Origin: an uncultured Gammaproteobacteria bacterium
GTDB taxonomy: Bacteria; Patescibacteriota; Microgenomatia; Levybacterales; UBA12049
DNA length: 64,000 bases
Assembly: GCA_964515545.1 (NCBI GenBank)
Contig: CAZERI010000003.1
Span: 21,224 to 85,223, forward strand
Direction of reading: 5' to 3'
Below, piece after piece: positions 1,272-60,049 of the stretch. A model generated the notes under the pieces. It was not told where the DNA came from, did not search any database, and was given only the letters and a program-made list of their open reading frames with translations. The number at the start of each line of letters is the position of its first letter. Position 1 is the stretch's first letter. The translations under genes and the position numbers were made by a program.

Positions 1272-1820
1272 GTGTTATTAACGATTGTTATCTTTCTAGT
1301 TACTCTCTCGTTGCTGTTATTTCTTCTCTCTATGATCTGGCCTCCAGATAGTCCATGGTCTCCTTGGTGGAGAACAAATGGTAAAGTTGCCAGAGCTATG
1401 ATTAAACTTGCTGCTATTACAAAAAATGACATTATCTACGATTTAGGCTGTGGAGATGGGACAGTTCTTTTAACGGCAGCCAAATCAAAGCAAGCCAGAG
1501 GCATAGGACTCGAGATTGATCCTTCGCGTGTATTGATCGCAAAAGCGAGAATCAGGTTTGAAGGCGTCACTAGATTAGTCACCATAAAACGTAAAGACCT
1601 CTTTTTAGAGGATATTTCCGAAGCAAGTGTTGTCGTTGTCTATTTAGTTCCAAAGACATTAAAGAGACTTGAAACAAAATTTATGACAGAACTCAAACCA
1701 GGAACGAGAGTCATAAGTTATGTATACCCTATCTCTTATCTTCCGCTAATCGGTAAGGACGAAAAAAGGCAGATTAATCTTTATGCAATTCCCAAGAAAA
1801 TCAACAAGCAAAAACATTAA
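1272..1820 (+). CDS. class I SAM-dependent methyltransferase with N-terminal TM helix
   Basis: N-terminal hydrophobic segment, then the motif I-like sequence DLGCGDGTV and downstream acidic/hydrophobic strands typical of the Rossmann methyltransferase fold. Confidence 0.55.
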   Translation: MLLTIVIFLVTLSLLLFLLSMIWPPDSPWSPWWRTNGKVARAMIKLAAITKNDIIYDLGCGDGTVLLTAAKSKQARGIGLEIDPSRVLIAKARIRFEGVTRLVTIKRKDLFLEDISEASVVVVYLVPKTLKRLETKFMTELKPGTRVISYVYPISYLPLIGKDEKRQINLYAIPKKINKQKH

Positions 1821-3192
1821 TAGAATTAATAACTCCCTCTGAATGAAAAGGAAATCTCTGAAGAAGATGACAATCCTTTGTCAATAATTTTTTATCGACA
1901 ATATTAGTCATAATATCTTGTTTTACATTAATTTCTGGATACCAAGCTCCAGTAGTAATAACCCCACTATGATTTCTTATCGCATCCTGCGTAAGGTCTC
2001 GAGCGTTAAGGTATCCTTTTTTAAAAATATTGTCATTAGTATCTATAATGCCATTAAGAAGGGGGATTTTACTTTGATAAGAAATAGCAGGCGTAATACC
2101 ATTAACACCATAAAGACTTGAGATATTATTTGTGGTAAGTATGTCTACTATTTGAGTTGCAGGTATTATCTGTAAGTCATCAAATCCGTTAAAATAGGAA
2201 AAGAAATTATACAATGTAAAGATAAGAACGATAGTTGGGATCATAAAACGATTTAATGAAACCCTCTCATATAGTTCTTTAAGAAATATGGGAAAGCTAA
2301 GAATAATCAAAGGAAGAGTTACATTAAGATAAAGATAATAAACATCTTTATACATATAAAAGAAGATAAGACTTAGTACTGCAAAGAATCCAAAAAATGA
2401 CTTTTTCTTTATCAAAATCACAATACATAACAAAAGAAGACTAACGAAAAGAAAATCATGCATGATGAGGAAATAGATAATGTTTGTTTTACTTACACCC
2501 TCAGAGCGTGTTAATGAGTAAGCAAAAACATCCAGGAAAAAAGAATGTGAGGCAAGAATAAGAGATGGCAATAAGACTAAAGCACTAGTGATGCCTCCTC
2601 CAATAAAAAAACTAAGTAATGCTTTCCGATTATTGAATATAAAAAAGAGTATATAACTAAGAAAAAGAGGTAATGAATATGCCTTAGTAAGAAGTGCTAA
2701 TGCTGTAAGTATTCCAACTAAATAGTATTTTTTCTTTATAAAGAAAAAATAACTGCTCACTCCAAAGAGAGCTGCTAAAAAGACTCCTGATTGATGACTG
2801 GAGGTAGACAGTATCATAAAGGAGAATAAATAAAGAAAAAGAGTAGTAGTAGAAGTAAGTCTTGAGGAACTTTCTTTAAAAGCGAGGTAATATATTATCC
2901 CGCTGGTAACAGTAATCTCCAAAATCGCAGTGAAATAATAAAAAAGAAGATTACCTCCAGAAACGAGAAAATAAAGACTAGCTATATAAGGAATAAGAGG
3001 AAAATTTGTAAAGAAAATATCTTTGTATAGGATTTTACCGCTAAGTAATTCTTTTCCTGTTAAGAAATAAATATTGGTATCTGAAAGTCTAATTCCTAAG
3101 TTCTGCAGCTTAATAAAAACAAAAATAGTTATACAAATGATAAAAGGAATGAAAATAAAACCTGTATTTTTTTTCATATTAATTTTTTTCAT
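1801..3192 (-). CDS. polytopic membrane protein with C-terminal soluble domain, putative GT-C-like glycosyltransferase
   Basis: More than 10 predicted TM helices. 4-nt overlap with the upstream TPR/GT-C gene. No catalytic motif confirmed. Confidence 0.35.
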   Translation of the reverse strand: MKKINMKKNTGFIFIPFIICITIFVFIKLQNLGIRLSDTNIYFLTGKELLSGKILYKDIFFTNFPLIPYIASLYFLVSGGNLLFYYFTAILEITVTSGIIYYLAFKESSSRLTSTTTLFLYLFSFMILSTSSHQSGVFLAALFGVSSYFFFIKKKYYLVGILTALALLTKAYSLPLFLSYILFFIFNNRKALLSFFIGGGITSALVLLPSLILASHSFFLDVFAYSLTRSEGVSKTNIIYFLIMHDFLFVSLLLLCIVILIKKKSFFGFFAVLSLIFFYMYKDVYYLYLNVTLPLIILSFPIFLKELYERVSLNRFMIPTIVLIFTLYNFFSYFNGFDDLQIIPATQIVDILTTNNISSLYGVNGITPAISYQSKIPLLNGIIDTNDNIFKKGYLNARDLTQDAIRNHSGVITTGAWYPEINVKQDIMTNIVDKKLLTKDCHLLQRFPFHSEGVINSINVFAC

Positions 3193-4787
3193 AGATTATG
3201 AAGGAGTGTATTAAATTGCGGATTATTTTTTCCTAATTTCAGCAAGCTTTCATGAACAAAATCTAGACCCTGTTTGTTATTTGTCTTTTGATAGAGCATG
3301 TAGAGTTTTACATAGGATAAATAAAAAGTAGGTGAGAGTGTAAGCGCTTTTTTATATTCTTTTTCAGCATTTCTGGTATCTTGAATACTTGCATAGGAAT
3401 TAGCTAAGTTGTAATGCGTTTCAGGATATCCATCTCCTAGCTCAATGGCTTTTTTGTAAATGTCAATTGCATGATTCGGTTCTCCTAAGTCTGCATAAGC
3501 CATAGCTAAATTATTGTAGGCTCTAGGACTTTGGACGTGAGATAGGGTTTGTGTGTAAAAAGTAATAGGATCATGCCACTCTGTATTTCTGGAGATAGTA
3601 CGAATACAAAGAAGAACTATAATTACTAGTATAAGTAAACTAATCCCCTCTTTAATAATGGGTCTGGCTTTCTGGGAGAGCGATAATAGAAGATAAAAAA
3701 ACAAAAGAAAAAATCCCACAGATGGAAAGAACAAAAAATGTTCATAGAAGATTCCATTAATTGGCAGAATTCCACTAGTCGGAATAAAAGTTATAACAAT
3801 CCATAAAAGACTAAAGAGAATGATGGGCCATTTCTCCCTCTTCCATATTGCATAGCCCATGGCTGCAATACTTCCCATAAGAGTAATGATTATGGGTAAG
3901 GTTAGAAAAGTCATAATATGTACCTCGCTATCTCTTTCCATAAAAAGAGACTTGGGGTAGATGAGAAGACTTAGATATCTCGGAACTAAATCAAAAAAAG
4001 TTATAAGTCTAACTAGAAGGTTACTGGAATAAATATTCGCAGAATTGTAGAAATTTAATGTGTTATTAAAATTGAGAGCAGTAATTCTGAGGATAAAATA
4101 GATCCCCGTAATAAAGGCATAGGGAGCTGTTTGGATTATTGAGTCTACAATAGCTTTTTTAGAAAAAGATTTTTTTGAAAACAGAAAAACAATAAAAATG
4201 AGACCTGGGCTCATTAAAGCAATTTCTTTGGAAAGTAGTGCAGCGATAAGCGTTATAAAAGAAAATAAGTGAGTAATACGTTTTTGTGAGGTTATTAAAA
4301 GAAGGGTAAGGATAATGAAGAAAAAACTTAATGGGTCGCCTCTTCCTGATGCATAGGCAATAGCCTCTGTTTGAATGGGATGAATTAAAAAAAAGAGAGA
4401 GACGAAGAAGGCTAATAACTGATCATCAAAAAGTTTTTTTATAAGAAGGAAGAGTAAGGCTCCTCCAAGAAAATGGAGGAAAAAACTATCAAAATGATAA
4501 ATAAACCCATTATCCTTAAACAGTTGGTACTCAATACTAAAGCCCGTAAATAATAAAGGGCGATAATAATTACTTATCTCTCCTGATTCGGATGAGAGGC
4601 TTTTTGTAACGAGATGAGGAAGATCAAAATTTATTACGGCTTGGTTATTGTAGATAAATTGTTCATCATCAAAAAATAATCCATTACTTAATGTAATTCC
4701 ATAGCAAACTACAACAAAAAGGAAAAGAAGTGAGAAAATATAAAAGATATTTAATTGAGAAATCTTAGACAGTAATTGGGAGAACAT
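3189..4787 (-). CDS. TPR-repeat GT-C-type membrane protein (PMT/TMTC-like putative O-glycosyltransferase)
   Basis: Polytopic N-terminal domain, then C-terminal TPR repeats (AYNNLAMAYADLGEPNHAIDIYKKAIELG... YNLANSYASIQD... KEYKKALTLSP). Confidence 0.5.
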   Translation of the reverse strand: MFSQLLSKISQLNIFYIFSLLFLFVVVCYGITLSNGLFFDDEQFIYNNQAVINFDLPHLVTKSLSSESGEISNYYRPLLFTGFSIEYQLFKDNGFIYHFDSFFLHFLGGALLFLLIKKLFDDQLLAFFVSLFFLIHPIQTEAIAYASGRGDPLSFFFIILTLLLITSQKRITHLFSFITLIAALLSKEIALMSPGLIFIVFLFSKKSFSKKAIVDSIIQTAPYAFITGIYFILRITALNFNNTLNFYNSANIYSSNLLVRLITFFDLVPRYLSLLIYPKSLFMERDSEVHIMTFLTLPIIITLMGSIAAMGYAIWKREKWPIILFSLLWIVITFIPTSGILPINGIFYEHFLFFPSVGFFLLFFYLLLSLSQKARPIIKEGISLLILVIIVLLCIRTISRNTEWHDPITFYTQTLSHVQSPRAYNNLAMAYADLGEPNHAIDIYKKAIELGDGYPETHYNLANSYASIQDTRNAEKEYKKALTLSPTFYLSYVKLYMLYQKTNNKQGLDFVHESLLKLGKNNPQFNTLLHNL

Positions 4788-4790
4788 AAG

Positions 4791-5813
4791 TCACTTCTTA
4801 ATTCTTAACAAGATCCATCGTACTTTATCAGAAATTTTATAGAGAAAATACAGGGGGCTATTGAGAATTAAGTCATAACTTCCAATGAACTCTATAGGCT
4901 CAGGTCGAAACCCTTGTTTAAAACGATGAAAGCCATACCATGGATCGAGCTGGTCAGGATCAGGCCCTAAGGCTCCCCACATGTCAAACTTCTTTAGACC
5001 TAGTTTCTTACCAAATTTGATTGCCTCCCACATCATAAGTGTAGAAGCCATTGTCTCTCTATGCTCACTGCTGGATGCTCCATAAGGGTAATACAGGGAG
5101 TCTTTGAAGACAAACAGAATCCATGCAACTAGGATTTTCATGTTATAAGTGGCTACTAGTAGATGAGAAGATAGTTCATTGTATGGACTTTGAGAGTCGT
5201 GTGGAAGGATCTGCCATTGGAGTGAGTGATAGTGGTTTGTATGGGCATAAAATTTCTGCCTTTTGGTAGTCTCAGCAGTTATATCAAGATAGGTCTTAAA
5301 TGCATCTTCAGTATTTTTTTCTGCTACATTAACATTGTGTTTCTGTGCGACTCTAATATTGTAACGAGTCTTAGGATGGAGATTTTTTAAAAGTTCCTCT
5401 TCAGATTTATTTAGGTCAAGGACAAATGTATATTTTGTAAAAAGCGGATGCGCTGCTTTTTGTAGCCCCAGGTTATATAATGTCTTCTCATATTCCTCAT
5501 TCTGTCTCTCATTGGGTTCAATTTGTATGAAAATACAGTTATTTTTTTTACCGATTTCACGGAGAGTTTGGATGTAGGCTTTATTAGGGAGACTTCCTTT
5601 AGGGAGATATCCGATGTTCCATTTGGTCCTAGGGACTGGATGGAGAGTGAGTGTAAAACCATCTACAAGTTTAGTCTCATCATAAATTCCTATTCTCACT
5701 ACGTGAAGTCCCTCTTTTTTTCGGAATTCCCCCCATTCATAGGACTGGAGAGGATGAGAAACAATTCTATTATATGATTTACGCTCTTCTTCCCCTATCT
5801 CTGCTATTCTCAT
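4791..5813 (-). CDS. FemAB-family-like peptidoglycan bridge-forming aminoacyltransferase (GNAT fold); tentative
   Basis: About 340 aa soluble protein with a YEWGEFRK-type N-terminal region. Size and context fit FemX/FemAB. Not verified. Confidence 0.35.
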   Translation of the reverse strand: MRIAEIGEEERKSYNRIVSHPLQSYEWGEFRKKEGLHVVRIGIYDETKLVDGFTLTLHPVPRTKWNIGYLPKGSLPNKAYIQTLREIGKKNNCIFIQIEPNERQNEEYEKTLYNLGLQKAAHPLFTKYTFVLDLNKSEEELLKNLHPKTRYNIRVAQKHNVNVAEKNTEDAFKTYLDITAETTKRQKFYAHTNHYHSLQWQILPHDSQSPYNELSSHLLVATYNMKILVAWILFVFKDSLYYPYGASSSEHRETMASTLMMWEAIKFGKKLGLKKFDMWGALGPDPDQLDPWYGFHRFKQGFRPEPIEFIGSYDLILNSPLYFLYKISDKVRWILLRIKK

Positions 5814-9324: not shown

Positions 9325-10473
9325 ATGCCCCAACGCCGAAAAAAACCATTACAAAGGTTACTACTTCTTATTTTGGGAGTGATTGTACTGGGAGTCAGTA
9401 TTAAGATACTTTTGGCTATTATTAATTATGCTCCTGTTGCTTATCAGGTAGCCTTTAATAAGAATATTGAGCTTAAAAAGACCCAAGACCAACGAGTCAA
9501 TATCCTCCTTTTAGGTATTGGAGGAGGAAGCCATGAGGGTCCCAACCTCACTGACACGATTATCTTTGCCAGTATAGATCCAAAAAATAAAAAAGTTACG
9601 ATGGTTACACTTCCGCGCGATCTATGGGTACCTGATCTCCAGGCTAAGATTAACTATGCCTACGCTTCGGGGGAGGCAGAGAAAAAGAAGAAGGGTCTTC
9701 TTCTTGCTAAAGCAGTAGTAGGAAAGATCCTCGGACAAAAGATAGATTATGGTTTTCGAATTGATTTTAATGGGTTTATAAAGGCCGTAGATAGAATGGG
9801 AGGTTTGGATATTGACGTAGAGCGATCATTTGATGACTATGCATATCCTTTAAGTGGGAAAGAAGATGAGTTATGTGGGGTCTCTGAAGAATCTGTTGCC
9901 AGTATGTCTGCTCAGATTGCTTCAGGTAGTGCAACAGAATTTGATCTTTTCCCTTGCCGTTATGAACATCTTCATTTTGATAAAGGGATACAGCATATGG
10001 ATGGAGATACGGCGCTCAAATATGTAAGATCACGTCATGCTCTCGGTCCTGAAGGTTCTGATTTTGCTCGATCTCAGCGACAGGAACGGGTTATCAATGC
10101 CTTTAAAGATAAAGTGTTCTCAGCTGGAACCTTACTTAATCCAATAACACTCGTAAGTCTTTATGACACTTTTCAAGCGAGTATAGATACCGACATCCAA
10201 AAAAATGAATATGATGATTTTGTAAAGCTTGCCCAAAAGATGAAGGGATCAACGACTAAAAATTATGTAATTGATACAGGAAATGAGAGTGGCGATCGCC
10301 CAGATCTTCTTATTAATCCTCCGTTATCGCCTGATCGATATGGTGGAGCGTGGGTATTAGTACCTAAAGCAGGCCCTAGTAATTATGGAAAAATCCAAGC
10401 ATATGTTAAATGTCTGGTGGAAAATATCGGTTGTCCAATCACCCCAACCCCCTCCAAGCCTATCAGCAAATAA
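9325..10473 (+). CDS. LytR-CpsA-Psr (LCP) family glycopolymer-to-peptidoglycan ligase
   Basis: N-terminal TM anchor, then the LCP core ILLLGIGGG...DTIIFASIDP...TMVTLPRDLWV. Confidence 0.75.
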   Translation: MPQRRKKPLQRLLLLILGVIVLGVSIKILLAIINYAPVAYQVAFNKNIELKKTQDQRVNILLLGIGGGSHEGPNLTDTIIFASIDPKNKKVTMVTLPRDLWVPDLQAKINYAYASGEAEKKKKGLLLAKAVVGKILGQKIDYGFRIDFNGFIKAVDRMGGLDIDVERSFDDYAYPLSGKEDELCGVSEESVASMSAQIASGSATEFDLFPCRYEHLHFDKGIQHMDGDTALKYVRSRHALGPEGSDFARSQRQERVINAFKDKVFSAGTLLNPITLVSLYDTFQASIDTDIQKNEYDDFVKLAQKMKGSTTKNYVIDTGNESGDRPDLLINPPLSPDRYGGAWVLVPKAGPSNYGKIQAYVKCLVENIGCPITPTPSKPISK

Positions 10474-12738
10474 TCAAAATAGTTGATAAATTCTAGTGGT
10501 GCCATCTTCGAAGACAACTTTGCCCAGTGTTTGGAATTTCTCTTCATCAATATTGTACTTCTCCCTTTCAAGTGTCCCAATAAAGATATACTTAACATTA
10601 TATTTTTGGAGAAGAGATTTAGTCTTATTAAGATCTTTTGACTCATAAAGAGTCTTCACCTCATCTATTCTAGGGGCAGGGATATCGTACGTTCCTCGCC
10701 ACAGCCATTCGTGGACTGTCCAGCCAAGAACTGTAGGAAGGCCAGTATTACTTGAAACTCTTGCATAATCAGTATAGGAATCTCCCTGTGCTTCAAGAAT
10801 TACAGGCTGACCAACAACGTTCTTATTGAGCCATGCAATAGCCTTAGCATCACTTGGATATTTCTCCTTCAGGTACTTTGTTCCATCTAGCCCGTGATAG
10901 GTCTTTAAATCTCCATAATAAGACATAATCGCGAAGTAAGGGTAGGTAAAGACAGTAGTAAGTAGACAGAGTGTAATAAAGAAAAAGAAGATATAGAGTA
11001 TCCTTGTGAGCCAAGTTTTTTTCATTTTAAGAGCCTGTGAAATACGGCTAATGGTATAGCCCGTTGCCAGAGATAACATAATAAAGGATTGAAAGACCAG
11101 CTTAAACATCGTATTTGCTCGATAATGATCAGGATAAATATCTTTAGCGTATATAAATTCTGGAATAATAATAAGGAGGGTGGCTATAAGGATGAGCATG
11201 ATAACAAATACATCAGATCTTGCTAGCTGTTTAATTTTAAAAAAAGTTATTCCTAGAAGGAGAATGAAGAAATAGAAAAACCCATACAGAGTTACGAGCT
11301 GCCACCAGGGAGACTGCTGACAATGCTTTGGTTCAAAAAGAAAAGGACCAATATGTCCAATGCTAGTTAAAAAAGATGGAGCACATAAAACTCCAATTCC
11401 AGACACAAAAGGCTTAAAGAAAAATGATAGCGGTAAAGAGAAAAAGAATAGCCCTGCTCCAAGTACTATGCTTGGGATTATAAGTCCCATACCGAAATTA
11501 AGCAGTTTTTGGACAATAGGAAGTTTTGCTGGCGATATTTTTCCCCAATTAAGGTATGCAATAAGAAGGAGTGCTAATAAATAATAAATAAGTCCATCCC
11601 ACGCATTTGTCATATACATAACTGCGAGAAGAAGACTTAAAATCAGTATTTGAGGAAATGATAATGGAAGTTCGCGTATAATGAGTTGATAATAAGCAGC
11701 AAGGCCTTTTTTCTTTTTATGAATCTCTTTTTTATGTATTAGTCTTTTATACCCAAGAAAAAGAGAGTAAATAAAAGCAATAGTGAGAAGGACAAAGGGA
11801 ATATCCGTTACATGTCCATGAAGATCTGAAACTGTCCATGAGTAAATAGGAAATTCATGGATCGTATGATAGATAAACCTAGTTGCATTAGGATACCAAT
11901 AGGAATTGGGAAATGTGTGAGGTGAGAACACTAACTGCCAGAATGGAACTGGGTGCTCATTCTCATAAGGGCGAAACAGGGTATACAAAACATGCAGATT
12001 TCCAGCAAATGTTACCAATAGTCCTGAAAGGATTCCAACAATAATTATTCTTAAAAATCCAACCTTTTCAGCTACTTTATGATAGAGGTTAATTCCTATT
12101 GAGAATGAACTTACAAAAGTAAGGCCAGCAATCGTTGCGATCATTACATTAAAGGTGTAATTAGACTGGAGAAGTGATAGCTTAGTTAAGACTGCTGTAA
12201 TCAAGTGTCCAAAATAATAGTAGTTAATTGAAAATGGAGTAAACCACATATCTTTAGGAGGGAAATACGTGCTTCTTAGGATTGAATTGACAAAACCATA
12301 ATCCATAAATTTTTCAAGTCCATTAATATCTGGCGCGAAAGCACGCACATAGGAAAAAAAAGCCAAGATGACAATAAAAAGGAATTCTTCAATGATAATC
12401 CACTTGCTAAGGTATCTACCATCGTGGAGGAATGGTTGCCAGAAACTGGTTCTCTTACCTATAAAAATGAATACAACGGAATAAATTAAAAGCAAAAAAA
12501 TAAGACTTAAAAAAGCGAATGGGAGTAGATGGATAATTCCTACCACGAGCATGAGGTAGGAGAGGAGCAGTATCCCGATACTTTTACTAAAAATATATCC
12601 TCTATCAATAAAATGCGGGAAGAGGTAGTAGCTAAGCGGAGTAAAGATAATTCCGATAATAAATAGAGTAAGCCACCATTGGAAGCCCACAAGTAAATCA
12701 GCAGACATATTATGCAAGCATATCAGATAACTGGACAA
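10474..12738 (-). CDS. large polytopic membrane protein with YYY motif (DUF2298/Chlor_Arch_YYY-like), putative GT-C glycosyltransferase
   Basis: 754 aa with more than 12 TM helices. FTPFSINYYYFGH motif. C-terminal soluble domain of about 150 aa. Last gene of the nine-gene operon. Confidence 0.4.
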   Translation of the reverse strand: MSSYLICLHNMSADLLVGFQWWLTLFIIGIIFTPLSYYLFPHFIDRGYIFSKSIGILLLSYLMLVVGIIHLLPFAFLSLIFLLLIYSVVFIFIGKRTSFWQPFLHDGRYLSKWIIIEEFLFIVILAFFSYVRAFAPDINGLEKFMDYGFVNSILRSTYFPPKDMWFTPFSINYYYFGHLITAVLTKLSLLQSNYTFNVMIATIAGLTFVSSFSIGINLYHKVAEKVGFLRIIIVGILSGLLVTFAGNLHVLYTLFRPYENEHPVPFWQLVFSPHTFPNSYWYPNATRFIYHTIHEFPIYSWTVSDLHGHVTDIPFVLLTIAFIYSLFLGYKRLIHKKEIHKKKKGLAAYYQLIIRELPLSFPQILILSLLLAVMYMTNAWDGLIYYLLALLLIAYLNWGKISPAKLPIVQKLLNFGMGLIIPSIVLGAGLFFFSLPLSFFFKPFVSGIGVLCAPSFLTSIGHIGPFLFEPKHCQQSPWWQLVTLYGFFYFFILLLGITFFKIKQLARSDVFVIMLILIATLLIIIPEFIYAKDIYPDHYRANTMFKLVFQSFIMLSLATGYTISRISQALKMKKTWLTRILYIFFFFITLCLLTTVFTYPYFAIMSYYGDLKTYHGLDGTKYLKEKYPSDAKAIAWLNKNVVGQPVILEAQGDSYTDYARVSSNTGLPTVLGWTVHEWLWRGTYDIPAPRIDEVKTLYESKDLNKTKSLLQKYNVKYIFIGTLEREKYNIDEEKFQTLGKVVFEDGTTRIYQLF

Positions 12739-13261
12739 TTTGAGTTATTCTTTCTGGAAGATGAGTTGTCGAAAGCGTGGGATGCAGCCAGAAAAGCTTT
12801 GTTTTTTTATTTTCCCTTGCGACATATTTGAGAAGGTGTATATCATCATCGACATATATATCAAGTGAAAGTTCTTTGAGTGTCTGGTTTTTAAAAGTGT
12901 GGGGTTGAAGGTTATTGAAATTGAAATACATAGCGTCAAAAATCAGATCAAGCCCTAAATGGTTCATCAGAGACAGTGTCTGTTTTTGTAAAAATCCAAA
13001 TCTGCTTGATATTAAATAAAGTTCATATTTTTGTTTTGATAAGGATTTAAGAAATTTTATATTAGGAACAATAGGAGGACGAAGATAGGATGCATGTGAA
13101 AGTTGACGGATAAACTGTTCAGGACGGGACGGCATTCGGTAAAGAAGTGTACCATTAGCTTTCTTCCTGTACAGATGGTCAATGAGGCCATCCGGGACAA
13201 GTGGTGGATAATCAATAAATACTTTGTCTAAATCAAAACCGATCCGTGTCATAAACATCAA
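12710..13261 (-). CDS. HAD-superfamily-like hydrolase (putative sugar-phosphate phosphatase); tentative
   Basis: N-terminal IGFDLDKV resembles HAD motif I (DxDxV/T). 4-nt overlap with the upstream epimerase. Confidence 0.3.
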   Translation of the reverse strand: MMFMTRIGFDLDKVFIDYPPLVPDGLIDHLYRKKANGTLLYRMPSRPEQFIRQLSHASYLRPPIVPNIKFLKSLSKQKYELYLISSRFGFLQKQTLSLMNHLGLDLIFDAMYFNFNNLQPHTFKNQTLKELSLDIYVDDDIHLLKYVARENKKTKLFWLHPTLSTTHLPERITQIVQLSDMLA

Positions 13262-14337
13262 ATTTTAGATAGTAGATTGAGTAGTCGAAAATTCCAACTT
13301 ACTCGGTGTGTATTGCCTGTTTTAGTTTGGATTTTGTTCCTATTTTTCTTGTACCATAAATAGCTTTCAAGCAAAAGATCCTTATTAGATTTTTTTGGAT
13401 GCCAGTCAAGTAACTTTTCAGCTTTTTCCGTTGAGACATATGAAGACACAGGCATTGTTTTATAATGCCAAGCAGCCAGAGGTGAAAGCCGACATACTTC
13501 TAAAATTCTTAGAAGAAGTTGAGCTGGTAAAACAGGTAATCCAGTAATTTTAGATCTCGACTTTTCAGATCTGATAATAAATTGTAGATCTTTTCTCCAT
13601 GTTTGGAAATCTTTAGCCCCAATATTGAAAATTTCATTAGTAACCTTATTTATCAAGGCTTTATAGACTGCATCAACAACATCACTCACTGCTAAAAGTT
13701 GATATTTATTTTTTCCATTTCCTAAGATAAAGACGCGATGGCCTGAATAGATCGCCTCAAACCATAAAGAGAATACGCCTAGTCTTTCTGGCCCAAGAAA
13801 CGTTTTGGGACGGATAATATTGATAGCAAGACCTTTCTTCATGAATTCTTTACAGAGTTCTTCTGCTTTTCTTTTAGATTTTCCATAGTAGCCGATTGGA
13901 TCCAGAGGGCTCTCTTCGGTTTCAGGAAGATGTTTTGGAACACCATACAGTGCTGTAGTTGATATAAAGACTACCCGTTCTATGGTGTGTTCATGTGCTG
14001 CTGTAAGAATATTTTTTGTACCATCAACATTTGTACTGAAGATTTTTTTCTTAGTTCTTTGAATCGGGAGAGCTGCTGCTGCATGTACAATGTGAGTTAC
14101 CCCTTTGAGCGATCTTGCCACAACTTTTTTATTTCTAATATCCCCTTGAATTACACTCACTTTATTAATAAGATCTTTAGCATCGAGAGGGGCTATATCA
14201 AGAAGTACTACTTCCCAATCTTCTTTTATGAACTTTCTTGCTAAGTGTACTCCGAGAAAACCAGTTCCTCCGGTAATAAGAACTTTTTTTGACATGGTGT
14301 CTATTCTACTATTGTTTTTCTTTAAATGACAAGACAA
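13258..14337 (-). CDS. NAD-dependent sugar epimerase/dehydratase (extended SDR)
   Basis: VLITGGTGFLG glycine-rich NAD-binding motif. Catalytic YxxxK (YGKSK). Probable true start at the internal Met (MSKKVLITGG), about 14 codons downstream. Confidence 0.8.
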   Translation of the reverse strand: MSCHLKKNNSRIDTMSKKVLITGGTGFLGVHLARKFIKEDWEVVLLDIAPLDAKDLINKVSVIQGDIRNKKVVARSLKGVTHIVHAAAALPIQRTKKKIFSTNVDGTKNILTAAHEHTIERVVFISTTALYGVPKHLPETEESPLDPIGYYGKSKRKAEELCKEFMKKGLAINIIRPKTFLGPERLGVFSLWFEAIYSGHRVFILGNGKNKYQLLAVSDVVDAVYKALINKVTNEIFNIGAKDFQTWRKDLQFIIRSEKSRSKITGLPVLPAQLLLRILEVCRLSPLAAWHYKTMPVSSYVSTEKAEKLLDWHPKKSNKDLLLESYLWYKKNRNKIQTKTGNTHRVSWNFRLLNLLSKI

Positions 14338-14349
14338 ATAGAGTTTTTC

Positions 14350-16026
14350 TTACTTAGCTAGGAGGATAGCCCGTATCTTTTCAGGTGAATAGTGTGATGT
14401 ATTCTTAAATATAAATGTCTTCGGGTGGTCATAGACCTGAAATGTCTCTTCGCTGCTGTCATCATTGAGACTAAAGCCAAAAAGTTGTGGGTATGATGAG
14501 AATTCAGCAACTTTTTGGTAGCCTAATTTTTCTGAGAAAAGCAGTTCATAGTAGCGTTTTGTCAGAGGATATCTTTCAGGAAGATGCATAAGCGTTCCAT
14601 ATAAGCGTCTTGAGTTAATCGTTAGATAATTTGCCTGAGAAAGGTAATCAGCGTAATAACTTACTTTTGCATCACTGTCTTGATCATAGATTGCTAGTGA
14701 GAGTGTTTTATAGTTGTCTGGGGCTCCTTCAGGAAGCGGTATAGGCTGGCCGTCATCCCAATGCTCAGATAAGATAAAACTATTCTGAGGGATATGGGAA
14801 TAAATCCATTGAGAGGTTGCGATTCGAGTTTGTTCATGGGTATAAATTGAGAGAAATGCAGTAGCATAGATTCCAGAAGCAAGAATGAAGAGTAGGATAA
14901 GCACACGGCCTAAACGGGAATACTTTTTGGCAATAAGATAAAGAGCATTAGCTCCGCAAATGATAATAAAAGGGAAAATCGGGATCATATACCGATTAAA
15001 TTTGGTATACCATGAGCCTACATAGAAGAAGTACAGCAGGGGAAATGAAATGAAAATAATAAATATCCAATGTTTTTTACGAGTCTCTTGATATGTTGTA
15101 ATAACCGTCCCAGCTATTGCAGTAATAGCAAACATACCGAGTTGCCAAAACATATTTTTTAGTTGAAAAAGGTAAGCTGGGGTATGAAGGAACTGGAGTG
15201 TATATACAACAGGGTTAGTACCAAGCACTACACTATTCTCATAGTGCATTGATTCCATAAATTTAGAGAAATTTAGAAAAGTGTAGGGTGAAAATAAACA
15301 GAATGTCAAAAATCCGCAGATACAAATGAGAAAGAAATAACTGATGCTTTTTTTTATTGATAGTTTCTTTTTAATAAAAAGGATAGATAACGCCAGAAAT
15401 GGAGCCACCATAAATGATATGCCGGTTGTTTTGGTAGCAACAGCAATTCCTACGCCAATACCTATGAGTAAAGATTTTTTAAAGGAAGGATGTTCATAGA
15501 AAATGATAGCTAAACAAGTGATAAGTGTAATTAAAAAGGTGAGGAGATTTTCTGTCGTTGAGAAATGAGCGGTTTGAATAGATGAGACTGTTAAAGTGTA
15601 GATAATAGATGCCAAGAACCCAGTGGACTTATTAAAGATTTTTGAGGATAAGTAATAAAGCGGAATAATAGTCAATGTTGAGAAAAAGGCTGAATAAGAA
15701 CGGCCTATGATATTAATCCATCCCCAATCATGAGCTATTGTAGGATTATTAAAAATTACTGCTAAAATATCTGCTGTAATCTTATAGAGATAGATCAAGA
15801 ATCCACCATAAGCGTAGAATTTGGGATCCATTTGAGAGAACAATTGAATTTGACTTACAGCATTTGCAATATTTCTCTCGTCGGGATGAAAAAAATGTCC
15901 GAGGTCCCAATTGAGATTAAAAAATCTGAAAAATGCTGCAATAAGAATAATAATAAGAAGAATAACTTTTGTTTTTTTATCAAAAAGATGAGAGGAGTGT
16001 ACCATAGAGTTTTTATGATGATACAA
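14350..16026 (-). CDS. GT-C fold glycosyltransferase, family 39/83-like (PMT/ArnT-type)
   Basis: Polytopic protein with an acidic HPDE motif in the first extracytoplasmic loop. Size and topology are typical of PMT_2-type transferases. Confidence 0.45.
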   Translation of the reverse strand: MYHHKNSMVHSSHLFDKKTKVILLIIILIAAFFRFFNLNWDLGHFFHPDERNIANAVSQIQLFSQMDPKFYAYGGFLIYLYKITADILAVIFNNPTIAHDWGWINIIGRSYSAFFSTLTIIPLYYLSSKIFNKSTGFLASIIYTLTVSSIQTAHFSTTENLLTFLITLITCLAIIFYEHPSFKKSLLIGIGVGIAVATKTTGISFMVAPFLALSILFIKKKLSIKKSISYFFLICICGFLTFCLFSPYTFLNFSKFMESMHYENSVVLGTNPVVYTLQFLHTPAYLFQLKNMFWQLGMFAITAIAGTVITTYQETRKKHWIFIIFISFPLLYFFYVGSWYTKFNRYMIPIFPFIIICGANALYLIAKKYSRLGRVLILLFILASGIYATAFLSIYTHEQTRIATSQWIYSHIPQNSFILSEHWDDGQPIPLPEGAPDNYKTLSLAIYDQDSDAKVSYYADYLSQANYLTINSRRLYGTLMHLPERYPLTKRYYELLFSEKLGYQKVAEFSSYPQLFGFSLNDDSSEETFQVYDHPKTFIFKNTSHYSPEKIRAILLAK

Positions 16027-17290
16027 GAGAAGCTATTTTTTGTCCTAGCTCAACAGCATAATTAGTTCCTCTATCCCAAGGATAAACTTGTTCAATGTTG
16101 GCTAGATATACATGATCCAGAGGAGTGGTAAAAGGAGGAATGAGACGAGAATAATTAGTAGGTACGATAGGCTGAGCGAATGGCGCCCTGAAGACATCAT
16201 AATTAATCACATGTGTTTTATAGTGTGGGTTTATTTTTAAGAGGACCTCATCATATTTCTTAAGTAAGTCTTCTTTCGACATAGAAAATTCTTTACTGGT
16301 AGGTTCGGGATAATTGCCAACGTAGAGAAGGTGTTCATTATTGTAATGTGTTTTATCCATTAAATTAGTATGCTCAACAACTACCATAACCGGAGAATCT
16401 TTTTCACAAATACTGAGCCAATATGTCGTATCAGGCATAAATTGTTCTTTCAAACGAATTACCATATTAGTTGCCCCAAGACCTCTTAGCCTCACCATTT
16501 TTTCTCTATAACTCTGGGGTAATTGGGGAGTCAAATTAAGGAAAAGATATGTGGGTAAGGTTACGATTACTTTATCAAAGCTCAAATCTTTTTTCTTTTC
16601 TCCCTTTTTGATAGTGACTGTAACTACCTCTTCATCTTTAATCGCTATAGTTTCAGTAGAATAAAGAATTGTCCCCTTCTTTTTTTCAACCACTTCAGCT
16701 AGATGTTGAGCAAAGGAGAGGAATCCGCCGTCGGGATAGGCAAGAGAAGGAGTACGTTTATTGATCCTAGTCCAAAACCATACAAGTGAAATTTCATCGG
16801 CATATTTCCCCATTTTATTACGAAGTTGCGGTTCCCAAAGCATTGAGAAAGCTTTCTTTCCCATGGTTTTGGTTAATACGCTAACTGCATTCAGTTTTTC
16901 CAGTGGCTTCCAGAAAGGATCGAATTTTAGGAAAGCAAGGACAGCACTCATCCGAAGTTTATCTATGAATGGCAGAAGCGGGAATTTCAAAATTGCTAGA
17001 GGAGAATCAAGTTCGTAGAGATGATTCTTAATAAAGACTGAAGTTTTAGGGCGTTTGATAATAACTTTATGATTAATTTCCTCGGCTAGCGTGAGAACAA
17101 AATTATCACTTGTGAACCAATGATGATAATGCTTCTCAAGCGTCCAGTCCCACCCCTCCTCTTGGTATCCTATCGCAAGACCTCCCGGTAGATTATCTTT
17201 TTCGATAACTGTTACTTCATGGCCAGCCTTTTGTAATTCATGCGCTGCAGCAAGGCCGGTAAATCCGGCTCCAATTATGCCAATTTTCAT
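16013..17290 (-). CDS. FAD-dependent oxidoreductase (amine-oxidase/UDP-galactopyranose-mutase-like fold)
   Basis: N-terminal dinucleotide-binding motif KIGIIGAGFTGLAAA...EVTVIEKDNLPGGLA. Confidence 0.65.
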   Translation of the reverse strand: MKIGIIGAGFTGLAAAHELQKAGHEVTVIEKDNLPGGLAIGYQEEGWDWTLEKHYHHWFTSDNFVLTLAEEINHKVIIKRPKTSVFIKNHLYELDSPLAILKFPLLPFIDKLRMSAVLAFLKFDPFWKPLEKLNAVSVLTKTMGKKAFSMLWEPQLRNKMGKYADEISLVWFWTRINKRTPSLAYPDGGFLSFAQHLAEVVEKKKGTILYSTETIAIKDEEVVTVTIKKGEKKKDLSFDKVIVTLPTYLFLNLTPQLPQSYREKMVRLRGLGATNMVIRLKEQFMPDTTYWLSICEKDSPVMVVVEHTNLMDKTHYNNEHLLYVGNYPEPTSKEFSMSKEDLLKKYDEVLLKINPHYKTHVINYDVFRAPFAQPIVPTNYSRLIPPFTTPLDHVYLANIEQVYPWDRGTNYAVELGQKIASLVSS

Positions 17291-18678
17291 AATGTTCCCC
17301 GAGCAATTAAGAGTAAGAGTGCTCCCATTCCAATTGCGAGAGTTCCTAGTATACCTGAAAGAACGGTAATGGAGCTACCAGGAGATGTATTAATTGGTTG
17401 AGGTGGCTGTGTCAGGATATCTGAAGGGACAATAACAGGTGTGGCTGTTGGAGAAGCCGTAGGAGCCGGCGTAAACGTGGGGCTAGGTGTAGGAGTTATG
17501 GTTATTTCAGGTAAGGGTGTTGCTGTCGGCTGCACGGGAGATACAGATGGCTCCGTGAACTGACTTCCTTCTGCAAAAACAGTGAAGTTACGTGTGATAG
17601 TTTGGAGAATGCCTTGGCTATTCTTGGTCTTAATAGTTATAGTATGCTCTCCTGGTTCAAGTTTGGTATCAGGACGATAACTCCAGGAGCCATTTTTATT
17701 GGAGGTGACTGTGGTCATGATAGGCTCTCCTGAGTGAATTTCGATCTGGACTTCAGTATTTGGGAGAGCGGTTCCCTCAAACTGCGGTTGGGGGTCATGA
17801 AGCTCTTCATTCCTATCAGGACTGGCAATTGCGGGCTCTTTCGGTCCAGCTTCAGTGGCTGAGAATGATGGGAAAGAGGAAGTATCTGCCGAATTTGAAG
17901 CGATTGGGACAGGTGAAATCTGATTTGGAGTAGAGGATGTAAAATCGTATGAGTTGTTAAGTGTTATTAGCGGAACAGGATTTATTTGACTCGCCAGGAC
18001 TGAGACTGTAGCTTTCCCCTTTGGATTTTCAATAAGCAATTTAATAAGAGAAGTAGGAGAGAAAGAGACATAAGAGGAAAAATCATTCGTTCGTAATGCA
18101 TTGAGAGGCATAACAAATGTCCCATCAGCTTTAGTCAGTGTGGAGAGTGTCTGAGCGCCATCTGTTACTAAGAGAACAATAGTAGTATTGTCATGGCTGC
18201 CATCTGCATTTGCTACCGTTCCAACAATAGGAGTCTGACGGGATGGATTTTGGGTAAGGGTGTTCAGTGTTTTAACACTAAATGGTTTGTCCTTATCTAG
18301 GAAGGTTCTATTCGAAGAAAGAATCGTGTAGTAATAGGTCGTGTTTGGTGATAAATTTTTGACTGTTATATGATGGGTAAGATATGGCTGAGGCGTACCC
18401 GACTGTTGATCCCGATCGTCAAGTGCAACCTTACTTCCCTTGGGCGTCGTATCATAGGTGAGGGTTCCTAGAACACTCTCTTGTGTAACATAGGAAAGAG
18501 TAAATGAAGTATCTGTAAGATTAGTAACACGTATCTCCTCAGGAGTATATGTAGGTGAAGCTTTTGTAATAAAGAATACTGTGTGATTGACTGCATAATT
18601 GATAGCAAAAAAACCGGCAATCAACAAAATAATGCCAAATAAAGTAGGAATTCTTTTATGTAACAGCGAGTTTTGCAT
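17287..18678 (-). CDS. surface protein with N- and C-terminal TM anchors, FN3-like, CarbopepD_reg-like and bacterial Ig-like domains, and a Thr/Pro-rich linker
   Basis: N-terminal TM. IRVTNLTDTSFTLSY is FN3-like. GTVANADGS...DGTFVMP is a prealbumin-like fold. GTALPNTEVQIEIHSGE...NGSWSY is a BIg-like domain. PTATPLPEITITPTPSPTFTPAPTASPTATP linker. C-terminal hydrophobic helix. Confidence 0.55.
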   Translation of the reverse strand: MQNSLLHKRIPTLFGIILLIAGFFAINYAVNHTVFFITKASPTYTPEEIRVTNLTDTSFTLSYVTQESVLGTLTYDTTPKGSKVALDDRDQQSGTPQPYLTHHITVKNLSPNTTYYYTILSSNRTFLDKDKPFSVKTLNTLTQNPSRQTPIVGTVANADGSHDNTTIVLLVTDGAQTLSTLTKADGTFVMPLNALRTNDFSSYVSFSPTSLIKLLIENPKGKATVSVLASQINPVPLITLNNSYDFTSSTPNQISPVPIASNSADTSSFPSFSATEAGPKEPAIASPDRNEELHDPQPQFEGTALPNTEVQIEIHSGEPIMTTVTSNKNGSWSYRPDTKLEPGEHTITIKTKNSQGILQTITRNFTVFAEGSQFTEPSVSPVQPTATPLPEITITPTPSPTFTPAPTASPTATPVIVPSDILTQPPQPINTSPGSSITVLSGILGTLAIGMGALLLLIARGTL

Positions 18679-18679
18679 A

Positions 18680-19009
18680 TTAGAGTAGTCCTCCTTCTCC
18701 TGAACCCGTTGCTTCTGGTGTCTCAGTAATTTCAGGAGTTGGAGTTACCTTAAGCGTACCAGATTCAGATCCTTCATCAGTAGGCACACTTTCAATAGAG
18801 AATATCGGTTCAATAGCAGTTCTCTTTTTTAAACTTGAAAGGACTCCTGTTGGAAAAGTAGGAGAGATGGATTCAATCGCTTGTGTTTGGGTTGAAGAAA
18901 TAGTTGACGTAACAGATTTATTATAGACACTAAAAATGACCCAGAGAACAACTAGGATCGTAGAAGGTACAAGAATATAAAGCAAGTTTTTTTGTTGTTC
19001 AGGTTTCAT
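18680..19009 (-). CDS. small bitopic membrane protein with Thr/Pro/Glu-rich tail
   Basis: One TM helix (LLYILVPSTILVVLWVIF), then a low-complexity acidic T/P-rich tail. 4-nt overlap with the upstream gene. Confidence 0.4.
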   Translation of the reverse strand: MKPEQQKNLLYILVPSTILVVLWVIFSVYNKSVTSTISSTQTQAIESISPTFPTGVLSSLKKRTAIEPIFSIESVPTDEGSESGTLKVTPTPEITETPEATGSGEGGLL

Positions 19010-19632
19010 GGTCGGTAATAGGCTGTAGCTCTAATGTTTAGTTGGTAAATAATGCCTTCTTGCGTTTTTTGTCGAGATGTTCCTACCCCATCAAGCGTTA
19101 TAATTCGATCGATTCCTACCAGCTTTTTAGTAAATGTTTCAAAATCTTCTTGATTTCCCTGAAAGGTTGCAGCTATCCCAATTGGGGTGAGGACACTTGC
19201 AGTTTTTTTCGCGGTAGCAATTTCAACATCACTAATATTAAGCTGTAAAACAATAAGACGTGAGTTAGCAGCCAAAGTTCGAATTTTTCCTGAGAGTGCA
19301 CTAGTACTGGCAGCTTTAGGGATAGCTGCATCAAGGATTTTCAGTTGTGGGGAGAGAGAAATATATTGATCTTCAAGCTGTGACATATTAGTTATTTTAG
19401 TTTGAAGAGAATCTGCCAAAAATTTATCATCTGCTAATGTCTTTTTAAGCTGAGAAATGGTACCTAAGGTAGGAGCGATAGCAAAAAAACCAAACAAGCA
19501 AATTGCCATAAGTGTCAAGATAACCGTCGCATACGATTGAACTTTCTCTTGTCTGAAGCTAGGTAATGACTTAATATAAGCAAGGTATTTCTCTTTAGGG
19601 AAATTGTGGAGAATACTCGTGTTAATTTTCAT
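19006..19632 (-). CDS. PilO-like bitopic protein (short cytoplasmic N-terminus, TM, coiled coil, alpha/beta periplasmic domain); tentative
   Basis: Architecture only: TM at residues ~40-58, then a predicted coiled coil and a ~100-aa domain. Confidence 0.3.
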   Translation of the reverse strand: MKINTSILHNFPKEKYLAYIKSLPSFRQEKVQSYATVILTLMAICLFGFFAIAPTLGTISQLKKTLADDKFLADSLQTKITNMSQLEDQYISLSPQLKILDAAIPKAASTSALSGKIRTLAANSRLIVLQLNISDVEIATAKKTASVLTPIGIAATFQGNQEDFETFTKKLVGIDRIITLDGVGTSRQKTQEGIIYQLNIRATAYYRP

Positions 19633-20255
19633 TGTGCTACCTCCCCGGACACTGGTGTTGGCGCAAGCCCTTTGACTGATGATGGCAAGGGGATTAAGTT
19701 ACATGAGACCTCGGCTTCAAGTTCTGCACTTGAGATCCTATCTTCAATACGATCGATACTGATATCTTTGATATCTTTTCTCTTCTCTAGATCACTGATA
19801 AAGTTCTTTAAATTATCAAGTGAACCTGTAGTAAATTCGATATGAAGGAGGGTTGGACTTATATTTAAAAGGGTAATTGTTATGTTATTTTTTTCTGCTA
19901 ATGCCTGTATATCGCTTAACTGTGTAGGCATGACAAGTACATTCTCATTAAGATTACTTGCCTGGGTAAGAGTATCTTGTATTTGCCTAAAAAGTTTTTC
20001 GTGATCAGAAACGGCAACAACTATTTGCTGGCGCTGCTTAATAAGATCATTGAGGTCTACAATTTGGCGATCCAAGTTAAATCTATAAAGAAAAGCGCCT
20101 AGTGCTATTGTTTCAGTTAGAATAACCAGGAATCTCCCTCCTGTTATGGCCCAATGGATAAAAACGTCAAGCGAAGGCGTCCCTTTCTTTTTAGCTAAAT
20201 TAATAGTTAGACCTTTTCTGGTGTCCATGGCAGGTAAGCAAATCCTCTGCAACAC
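19629..20255 (-). CDS. PilN-like bitopic protein; tentative
   Basis: N-terminal LTINLAKKK resembles the PilN INLLP motif. Single TM, coiled coil and C-terminal domain. First gene of the nine-gene operon. Confidence 0.3.
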   Translation of the reverse strand: MLQRICLPAMDTRKGLTINLAKKKGTPSLDVFIHWAITGGRFLVILTETIALGAFLYRFNLDRQIVDLNDLIKQRQQIVVAVSDHEKLFRQIQDTLTQASNLNENVLVMPTQLSDIQALAEKNNITITLLNISPTLLHIEFTTGSLDNLKNFISDLEKRKDIKDISIDRIEDRISSAELEAEVSCNLIPLPSSVKGLAPTPVSGEVAQ

Positions 20256-58474: not shown

Positions 58475-59581
58475 ATGGCTCGATCTTCAAGTAACGCTAA
58501 ATCTTCAGCAGTCGTCCAGCAGCAGGCAGATTCCACTCAGAAATTAGAATCAATCAAGATGGCAATGGACCAGATTGAAAAACAGTTTGGTCGTGGTTCA
58601 ATAATGCGTTTTGGTGAAAGCATGGGGAAACTTGATATTTCTGTTATTTCTACAGGCTGTCTTCCGCTAGACCTCGCACTCGGTGTTGGAGGCCTGCCCC
58701 GCGGAAGAATTATAGAAATCTATGGCCCTGAGGCGTCAGGTAAAACTACTGTTTCCCTCTCAACAATAGCTCAGGCTCAAAAGCATGGAGGAGTTGCAGC
58801 TTTTATAGATGCGGAGCATGCTCTTGATCCCCAGTGGGCAGAACGGATAGGTGTTAAGCTCGATGAGTTATTAATTTCTCAGCCCGATACAGGAGAGCAG
58901 GCTTTAGAAATTGCAGAGAGTTTAATCCGCAGCGGGGGAATTGATGTATTAGTTATTGATTCGGTTGCAGCCCTTGTTCCAAGAGCTGAGATTGAAGGAG
59001 AAATGGGAGATTCCGTCATGGGACTTCAGGCTCGTCTTATGTCTCAGGCCCTCCGTAAGCTGACGGGTGTCATCTCAAAGTCAAAGACAGTTGTTATCTT
59101 CACTAATCAACTCCGACAGAAAATTGGAGTGATGTTTGGTAATCCTGAGACAACAACAGGAGGCCTGGCGCTTAAATTCTATGCTTCTATTCGTATGGAT
59201 GTAAGAAAAATTGAGACCATTAAAGATGGTGATAAAGTTATTGGGTCTAGGCATCGAGTTAAGATCGTTAAAAATAAAGTTTCTACTCCTTTTAGGCTGG
59301 CTGAATTTGACGTTTTTGAACATGGTATTTCACGAGAAGGTGGAATTTTAGATGTAGGAGTTGAGATGAACGTTCTAACGAAGTCAGGAGCATTCTTCCG
59401 ATATGATGAAAAGATGATTGGTCAAGGGAAAGCTGCTGCTATTGATTGGTTAAAAGAGAATCAAGAAGAGACGAAAAAAATAGTTCAGGAGATAATGAGC
59501 AAGAGTAAAGACGGAGGTATGCCGGTTGCTGTCGGTGTTGAGGAAGATGAAGAAGAAGAACCTCTACCACCTGTCCAATAA
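58475..59581 (+). CDS. recA: recombinase RecA
   Basis: GPEASGKTT Walker A. Classic RecA sequence throughout. Confidence 0.95.
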
Positions 59582-59587
59582 TAGGTA

Positions 59588-60049
59588 ATGGACTCTTTTG
59601 AGAAATACTATATAGCGGTTATTAGGCTACTTACTCGTAGACCCCGTTCAGAAAAAGAACTTTTTGATTACCTCCTTAAGAAAAAAGCCCCCTTAGCTAT
59701 TAGTAATGCTGTAATTGCGAAGGTTCAAGAACAGCATTTTCAAAGTGATTTAGATTTTGCTAGGTGGTGGGTCCAGGGTAGAACTCGGTATAAAGCTAAA
59801 AGTAATTTAATAATCAAATTGGAGCTTCGTCAGAAAGGTATTAGTAATGAAATAATTCAGTCAGCATTAGAGGAAAAATCTGATGATTATAAAACTGACT
59901 TAGAAAAAGCAGAAATAACCGCGAGGAAGTATATAAAGCGAATTATCCACTTATCTAGAAATGATCAATATCGTCGGATGAGTTCATATCTTTCTCAGAA
60001 AGGATTTGATTATGATACTATCAGACGAGTAATTGACGATATATTATAA
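59588..60049 (+). CDS. recX: RecX-like regulatory protein
   Basis: Immediately downstream of recA. Helical-repeat protein of about 150 aa with RecX-like sequence. Confidence 0.5.
   Translation: MDSFEKYYIAVIRLLTRRPRSEKELFDYLLKKKAPLAISNAVIAKVQEQHFQSDLDFARWWVQGRTRYKAKSNLIIKLELRQKGISNEIIQSALEEKSDDYKTDLEKAEITARKYIKRIIHLSRNDQYRRMSSYLSQKGFDYDTIRRVIDDIL

Follow-up and report, generated by a model that had tools for sequence, protein, structure and literature searches.

Pro/Thr-rich protein regions are O-mannosylated in Actinobacteria by GT-C enzymes of the protein O-mannosyltransferase type (PMT; GT39), and pilins are O-glycosylated by GT-C enzymes (TfpW) or by Wzy_C enzymes (TfpO/PglL). The archaeal S-layer glycoprotein likewise carries a Thr-rich, O-glycosylated stretch, placed before its PGF-CTERM sorting signal. 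The episymbiotic life of candidate phyla radiation (CPR) bacteria depends on pili and surface proteins, and the question addressed here is how a type IV pilus (T4P) crosses a wall without a secretin; PilQ is lacking in CPR bacteria (PMC6744442). The locus considered lies in a 64,000-nt stretch of DNA (GenBank assembly GCA_964515545.1, contig CAZERI010000003.1, positions 21,224 to 85,223; “the window”), in which an open reading frame (ORF) at 17287..18678 on the minus strand, with an ATG start, encodes a protein of 463 amino acids (aa), here called X. These are exactly the limits given in a preliminary reading made from the letters of the window (the sequence-only reading).

The explanation to which we give an even chance is that X is an envelope stalk, working with PilN, PilO, and a small membrane protein encoded beside it, and fixed to the wall by sortase through a Pro/Thr-rich (PT) spacer in those lineages that bear an LPXTG signal. 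X would then serve the PilN/PilO platform as a structural partner, tying the platform to the peptidoglycan layer or carrying it through that layer; in the LPXTG-bearing orthologues attachment would be covalent, and the PT stretch would span the wall.

A conserved module with PilN and PilO homologues

Neighboring genes were compared across 80 loci from species-representative genomes, spanning Levy-, Woese-, Pace-, and Beckwithbacteria, and labeled by homology to the genes of the window. A PilN-like gene is found upstream of the X gene in all 76 loci with enough flanking sequence and a PilO gene in 75 of these 76, with a small transmembrane (TM) protein encoded between them and X. This trio is the only invariant link of the X gene, and was underweighted in the sequence-only reading, which had placed X between PilN/O-like genes and glycosylation enzymes; its general position is as described, but the gene immediately upstream encodes the small TM protein rather than PilO. 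Unbiased clustering of all flanking ORFs returned the same four-gene core, its members present in 81, 81, 80, and 68 of 83 loci, the last figure being that of the small protein, which is replaced elsewhere by an unrelated-looking small ORF in the same place. Gene order is the same in a subfamily at 30% identity.

In the window, the first gene of the module (19629..20255, minus strand) encodes a PilN homologue with a conserved N-terminal INL, whose profile matches Myxococcus xanthus PilN (3jc8; E=3e-5); PilN orthologues from the distant subfamily match PF05137 directly. N19 and L20 are nearly invariant, as is the INL motif in 31 orthologues, and this motif resembles the PilM-binding INLLP peptide. 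The homologue was called from a GTG at 208 aa, against about 185 aa for its orthologues, and translation probably begins at the ATG of codon 10 (MDTRKGLTINL...). The second gene (19006..19632, minus strand) encodes a PilO homologue (PF04350, 37.6 bits), with profile matches to PilO of M. xanthus (3jc8; E=7e-12) and Pseudomonas aeruginosa (2rjz; E=5e-7). The third (18680..19009, minus strand) encodes the small bitopic protein, of 109 aa, with an N-terminal TM helix, a conserved segment (TSTIS..I.PI.P.FD, extending to ..L.KR) after it, and then a disordered, S/T/P-rich tail (here TPTPEITETPEATGSGEGGLL). Its place in the operon is the “PilP position,” and its tail is a second possible glycosylation acceptor.

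X is encoded by the fourth gene, with a GGAGGA Shine-Dalgarno sequence 10 nt 5′ of its ATG. It was previously said to overlap both neighbors: there is a 4-nt overlap (ATGA, 17287–17290) with the downstream gene, but a 1-nt spacer separates it from the 109-aa gene upstream. This overlap and spacing indicate translational coupling on both sides.

In a complete Microgenomates genome, the single T4P locus lists PilA, PilD, PilB, PilT, PilC, and PilM, but not PilN or PilO (PMC7143001). The module described here is compatible with a role in supplying PilN and PilO to a T4P encoded elsewhere in the genome.

Architecture, conservation, and terminal helices of protein X

The sequence-only reading had X composed of an N-terminal TM helix, FN3-like, prealbumin-like, and bacterial Ig-like domains, a PT linker, and a C-terminal helix, and all of these are borne out by a Pfam scan and an AlphaFold2 model. 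The model, computed from an alignment of 79 sequences, has a mean pLDDT (predicted local distance difference test) of 85.5, with helices at residues 11–31 and 436–461, β-sandwiches at 47–136, 151–228, and about 283–367, and disorder over 370–430. Domain 1 (residues 45–137; 18268..18546) is an FN3-like β-sandwich, matched above cutoff by Pur_ac_phosph_N, a family of FN3-like fold (residues 49–134, 36.3 bits vs. 30), and below cutoff by fn3 itself (18.9 bits). Domain 2 (residues 151–228; 17995..18228) is prealbumin/CarboxypepD_reg-like: the match to CarboxypepD_reg over residues 151–194, spanning GTVANADGS...DGTFVMP, is sub-threshold (23.2 bits vs. 32.3), but the β-sandwich is nevertheless present in the model, at pLDDT >95, and PF13620 is precomputed on several orthologues. 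Residues 229–282 (17833..17994) comprise a highly conserved QINPVP-ITL-NxYDFT, a variable low-complexity stretch, and a conserved FPSF. Domain 3 (residues 283–370; 17569..17832) is a bacterial Ig-like domain, with a Big_13 match at residues 293–366 (40.3 bits vs. 27). The domains match only generic tandem FN3/Ig folds, and a PDB sequence search with X gave no meaningful match.

A stretch of domain 1, L-D-D-R-D-Q-Q (residues 86–92; 18403–18423), is invariant or nearly so throughout the family. In the model it lies between strands as a short helix. No known motif matches it, and it could be an interaction or metal-binding site.

Family members come from Levybacteria, Woesebacteria, Pacebacteria, Beckwithbacteria, and other Microgenomates, and are uniform in length (about 440–560 aa; >390 matches to X). 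About 100 were full-length among the top 150 cluster representatives (50% identity) in a profile search of 1.84 billion representatives; this search could not be used to estimate family size, its counts being inflated by giant adhesins with Big_13 repeats. In public records they are named only “FN3/Ig-like domain-containing” or “hypothetical.” Many records that contain this CPR-specific cluster are titled “uncultured Gammaproteobacteria” or “Pseudomonadales,” and one “Methylomirabilota,” with one protein assigned to “Vitreimonas sp.” (loci L005, L007, L010–L013, and others); these look like mislabeled records of metagenome-assembled genomes. An alignment of 79 sequences, the most divergent at 38% identity, has 24 invariant columns, including the LDDRDQ at residues 86–91 of domain 1; all three domains are well conserved, and the N-terminal cytoplasmic region and first TM helix (TM1) are conserved to the same degree. 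X belongs to a single-copy, vertically conserved envelope protein family of the Microgenomates (CPR/Patescibacteria).

An export signal followed by Ig/FN3 domains, a Pro-rich spacer, and an LPXTG signal is the textbook layout of a Gram-positive wall-anchored adhesin, and X might be simply that, a sortase-anchored protein for attachment to hosts or surfaces whose adjacency to PilN and PilO reflects operon hitch-hiking with no shared function. This appears quite unlikely. Adhesins evolve fast and vary in copy and domain number, while the X family is single-copy and uniform in length, with three strongly conserved domains and a conserved N-terminal cytoplasmic motif, in a gene order invariant over 79 genomes from several candidate phyla. 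The single copy, fixed length, conserved domains, invariant gene order, and translational coupling together are what one would expect of a part of a machine, and not of an adhesin under rapid evolution.

The N-terminal motif is part of residues 1–31 (18586..18678), a cytoplasmic n-region with [KR][KRQ]IPT-LLG (in X, K8 R9 I10 P11 T12), and then the TM helix placed at 11–31 by the model. P11 is invariant and G15 nearly so in the family; the full motif is carried by 53 of 81 orthologues, and the 1215 other ORFs of these loci lack it altogether. The following segment (residues 32–42; 18553..18585) ends in an invariant A40-S-P, a candidate signal peptidase I site (T-K-A/S-P, the slash marking the cleavage point). 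Around A40, the 79 sequences have Ala at −1 without exception, T, G, or S at −3 in 71, and Pro at +2 in 60, a family-wide pattern ([TGS]-x-A/[SAT]-P) that resembles such a site; the distant subfamily (30% identity) has P-R-A-T-P here, which is less like one. This last sequence, the length of TM1 (a full-length helix of 21 residues), and the resemblance of the conserved cytoplasmic motif to a binding peptide argue for a retained, functional N-terminal anchor. The KRIPT motif and TM1 would then be kept in order to contact the other bitopic proteins of the module.

At the other end, orthologues at 40–47% identity to X have tails with LPATG, LPKTG, LPVTG, or LPPTG, then about 20 hydrophobic residues and a tail of R/K. 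Orthologue tails score 16.4–20.6 bits on TIGR01167 (cutoff 15.9), and two score 23.7 and 26.5 bits on PF00746 (cutoff 20). Residues 430–436 of X, NTSPGSS (17371..17391), align to LP-x-T-G-[SN]-S of these orthologues: N-T-S-P-G falls in the LPXTG columns of the ungapped family alignment, with G434 invariant and Thr replaced by Pro. The rest (residues 437–463 plus stop; 17287..17370) consists of a 22-aa hydrophobic helix (437–458; Kyte-Doolittle 2.2–2.45) and the basic tail ARGTL, as expected of a sorting signal, the stop codon contributing to the ATGA overlap. Because of this column-for-column alignment, the C-terminal helix is, at the family level, best taken as a sortase sorting signal of the LPXTG type, normally removed by cleavage, and the PT stretch therefore occupies the place of a wall-spanning spacer. 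Both helices of the “doubly anchored” protein proposed earlier do exist, but one aligns to sorting signals and the other is followed by a possible signal peptidase site at A40.

The motif changes by steps among the relatives of X, from LPPTG through IPPPG/LPPPG, IPSPG, and ISSPG to NTSPG. In the 79-sequence sample, 34 members have Pro at the scissile position, 31 have Thr, and 14 have S/A/G/V; [IV]PVSG is conserved in the 30%-identity subfamily. In the NTSPG lineage, either a co-evolved enzyme may still process the signal or the helix may simply remain in the membrane. The family is a natural series of sorting-motif variants, from LPXTG to xxPG, for the study of sortase specificity.

Other proteins encoded in the same loci have canonical LP[PA]TG or LPx[AS]G signals after PT-rich segments. 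One is a conserved protein of about 394 aa with a weak Cohesin match (3435–4628 of locus L001, with homologues in 33 loci), encoded 5′ of the module in Levybacteria, which ends in a PT-rich stretch and then a canonical LP[PA]TGP and TM sorting signal. The signal on this protein shows Levybacteria to be using the LPXTG system.

The spacer and the neighboring glycosylation and cell-wall genes

The disordered spacer of X (residues 374–429; 17392..17559), which includes the linker quoted in the sequence-only reading (located at residues 384–414), has a pLDDT of about 50 and is 59% P+T+S (34% in the folded part), with 17 Ser/Thr. It is present in all 79 aligned members (36–99 aa, median P+T+S fraction 0.63), and no other ORF in the window has such a PT stretch, such a C-terminal hydrophobic tail, or the KRIPT motif. 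A cytoplasmic linker would have been incompatible with glycosylation as first proposed; by the positive-inside rule, K8/R9 before TM1 and R460 after the C-terminal helix put it outside the cell. X is thus predicted to be exported with its N-terminus in the cytoplasm, and to present a rigid three-domain stalk and then a flexible PT spacer outside the membrane. The spacer is a candidate wall-spanning segment, and, along with the S/T/P-rich tail of the small protein, would be a good candidate for O-glycosylation by transferases using lipid-linked sugars (GT-C/PMT-type).

Of 58 loci, about 52 have a PMT or GT-C-type gene within 10 kb downstream of X, and these genes are arranged in three unrelated ways. 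Thirty-seven loci have GT-C/DUF2298 genes of the type in the window, and 15 of the remainder have instead a convergent GT39-type PMT (PF02366+PF16192) and genes for two polytopic proteins. The third arrangement is that of one distant locus, the Pacebacteria-like L084 (11621–21608), where the X gene precedes those for Bac_transf, a Wzy_C-domain protein of 962 aa, GT2, an epimerase, a carbamoyltransferase, and GT4. The whole forms an en-bloc cluster of the glycan assembly and ligase type. Six of the 58 loci have no GT-C-type gene nearby. Since three kinds of glycosylation machinery recur beside the module, O-glycosylation of the spacer by the neighboring transferases is plausible, and this recurring link can be tested.

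An explanation along the lines of the sequence-only reading would make glycosylation the main link of X to its surroundings: a free-standing surface glycoprotein, with both helices in the membrane and the linker O-glycosylated by the downstream enzymes. The linker of every member is rich in Ser/Thr/Pro and lies outside the cytoplasm, which accords with this, as do the translational coupling of X in the window to the FAD oxidase and PMT_2 genes and the range of transferases elsewhere, which includes a bona fide GT39 PMT and the Wzy_C/Bac_transf cluster; the NTSPG variant, moreover, may escape cleavage and so leave a real second anchor. We nevertheless consider it unlikely. The FAD oxidase adjoins X in only 41 of 70 loci, and the six loci without a GT-C-type gene keep the PT linker, whereas PilN and PilO are never absent; the PMT_2 family acts also on lipids and glycans, the cluster sits with LCP and MurJ, and in orthologues the C-terminal helix is an LPXTG signal. 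With MurJ, LCP, and FemAB as their neighbors, the glycosylation enzymes could equally build a wall glycopolymer, and they could serve pilins or wall polymers instead of the spacer.

In the window, the module is part of one apparent operon of nine tightly packed or overlapping genes (10474–20255, minus strand): PilN, PilO, the 109-aa TM protein, X, the FAD oxidase, a PMT_2 GT-C protein, an NAD-epimerase, a 183-aa protein, and DUF2298. Terminator-like sites within it (12, vs. 7.4 +/- 3.3 in shuffled sequence) are not clearly above expectation. The gene coupled to that of X encodes an FAD-dependent oxidoreductase of amine-oxidase fold (16013..17290; NF005560/PRK07233, 381 bits on NF005560), whose matches in PDB searches are confined to the FAD-binding N-terminus. 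It is followed by a polytopic GT-C glycosyltransferase (PMT_2, 43.1 bits; 14350..16026), the NAD-dependent epimerase/dehydratase (13258–14337), the 183-aa protein (12710–13261), and the polytopic DUF2298 membrane protein (10474–12738), all on the minus strand; neither the PMT_2 nor the DUF2298 protein has a PDB match. An analogy of the FAD oxidase and short-chain dehydrogenase/reductase pair with the lipid-sugar epimerase DprE1/DprE2 was dropped because the FAD enzyme has an amine-oxidase fold, not that of DprE1.

An LCP gene (9325–10473, plus strand) converges on the operon. Farther along, a second PMT_2 membrane protein (also of 463 aa), a 532-aa TPR protein, and a FemAB-family protein are encoded in a row (1801–5813, minus strand), with UvrD and TIM between these and the LCP gene, an order also found in many Levybacteria loci. 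There is a RecA-RecX pair at 58475–60049 (plus strand), and the rest of the window holds a ribosomal-protein/SecY operon and housekeeping genes. The 64 kb contain no CRISPR, pilus motor, or sortase gene.

Across the loci, the neighborhood is a cell-envelope island, with MurJ (57 loci), LCP (44), GT-C/FAD oxidase (47), DUF2298 (35), FemAB, and Ddl. These neighbors, and the lack of T4P motor genes nearby, suggest a further alternative: that the whole module, PilN and PilO included, is a scaffold for extracytoplasmic assembly of a wall glycopolymer instead of pili, X being a wall-attached ruler or acceptor. This also seems distinctly improbable, however, as PilN and PilO homologues are known only from machines of the T4P and type II secretion system kind, the PilN homologue keeps its N-terminal INL like that of the PilM-binding peptide, and the glycosylation gene sets vary between lineages when the module does not.

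Several results weigh against X as a sortase-fixed stalk working with PilN and PilO. PilM, PilB/T, and PilC were found neither within 10 kb of the 83 loci nor in the window (the PilT query sequence being approximate), so that homology of PilN and PilO is the one connection to T4P, and the surrounding genes (MurJ, LCP, FemAB, Ddl, GT-C) belong to cell-wall biogenesis. X shows no likeness, by sequence or fold, to PilP, PilQ, or any pilus protein. In place of an LPXTG-type pentapeptide some 30–35 residues from the C-terminus it has NTSPG, and its last 50 residues matched no sorting-tag model in NCBIfam or Pfam at E<=10, including PEP-, PGF-, and GlyGly-CTERM. We know of no precedent for Pro at the scissile position. 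Finally, no sortase was found among the ORFs of the 64-kb window or the frequent neighbors of the loci; sortase is reported to be near-ubiquitous in Microgenomates (PMC6744442).

Comparison with described systems

The LPXTG substrates of monoderms (TIGR01167/PF00746) share with X an export signal, tandem β-sandwiches, a Pro-rich spacer immediately preceding the motif, a hydrophobic segment, and a basic tail, and orthologues of X pass the models for them. X itself differs, with NTSPG, in having lost the Leu-Pro, in the Pro at the scissile position, and in failing these models; its N-terminal region shows the conservation of a functional anchor, and sortase substrates are not described as being encoded, like X, in a fixed operon with PilN and PilO. 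Should X prove to be a wall-anchored glycoprotein and nothing more, it would belong to a familiar class as an unremarkable member.

With the PMT/GT-C, TfpW, and TfpO/PglL systems, X has in common a disordered, extracytoplasmic Ser/Thr/Pro region, in X a candidate acceptor, encoded beside polytopic transferases for lipid-linked sugars. Around X, however, the enzyme sets vary by lineage, and membership in PMT_2 does not specify a protein acceptor. The archaeal S-layer glycoprotein is similar in its Ig-like domains, its Thr-rich spacer (glycosylated in archaea), and its C-terminal sorting helix (processed in archaea), but belongs to an archaeosortase system without homology to this one, and nothing about X indicates that it forms a lattice.

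Among CPR proteins, PamR of the Pam pilus operon has tandem FN3 domains and a C-terminal TM helix, and is proposed to tether the filament to the membrane (10.64898/2026.03.03.709456). As described, it has two domains, with no PT linker or LPXTG signal, and its operon is of the chaperone type, without PilN or PilO; the Pam pilus was rejected as the same system as the one considered here on the grounds of this different operon.

The closest parallel in gene order is the PilMNOPQ alignment subcomplex. The series PilN, PilO, small protein, and large extracytoplasmic protein mirrors pilN-pilO-pilP-pilQ, and PilP, like the small protein, is small and anchored, with a disordered region. The differences are that X resembles neither PilP nor secretins, that PilM and motor genes are not adjacent in the X loci, and that the Microgenomates host is a monoderm, and hence has no outer membrane to cross. 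It is conceivable, if doubtful, that the four-gene module corresponds, in Microgenomates, to the periplasmic part of PilMNOPQ: a strut or collar from membrane to wall that would guide a T4P through a monoderm wall lacking a secretin, with the N-terminal helix of X kept beside PilN and PilO, KRIPT serving as a docking peptide, and the C-terminus fixed to peptidoglycan by sortase via a glycosylated PT tether.

Literature searches found no description of a PilN-PilO-small protein-X module. Its parts are known ones, in the Ig/FN3 domains, the PT spacer, and the LPXTG-type signal; what is new, relative to the systems above, is the obligate coupling to PilN and PilO, a cytoplasmic N-terminal motif that is conserved, and a sorting motif that has drifted from Thr to Pro. 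The X family is a conserved and unannotated candidate for the missing envelope-proximal part of the CPR T4P.

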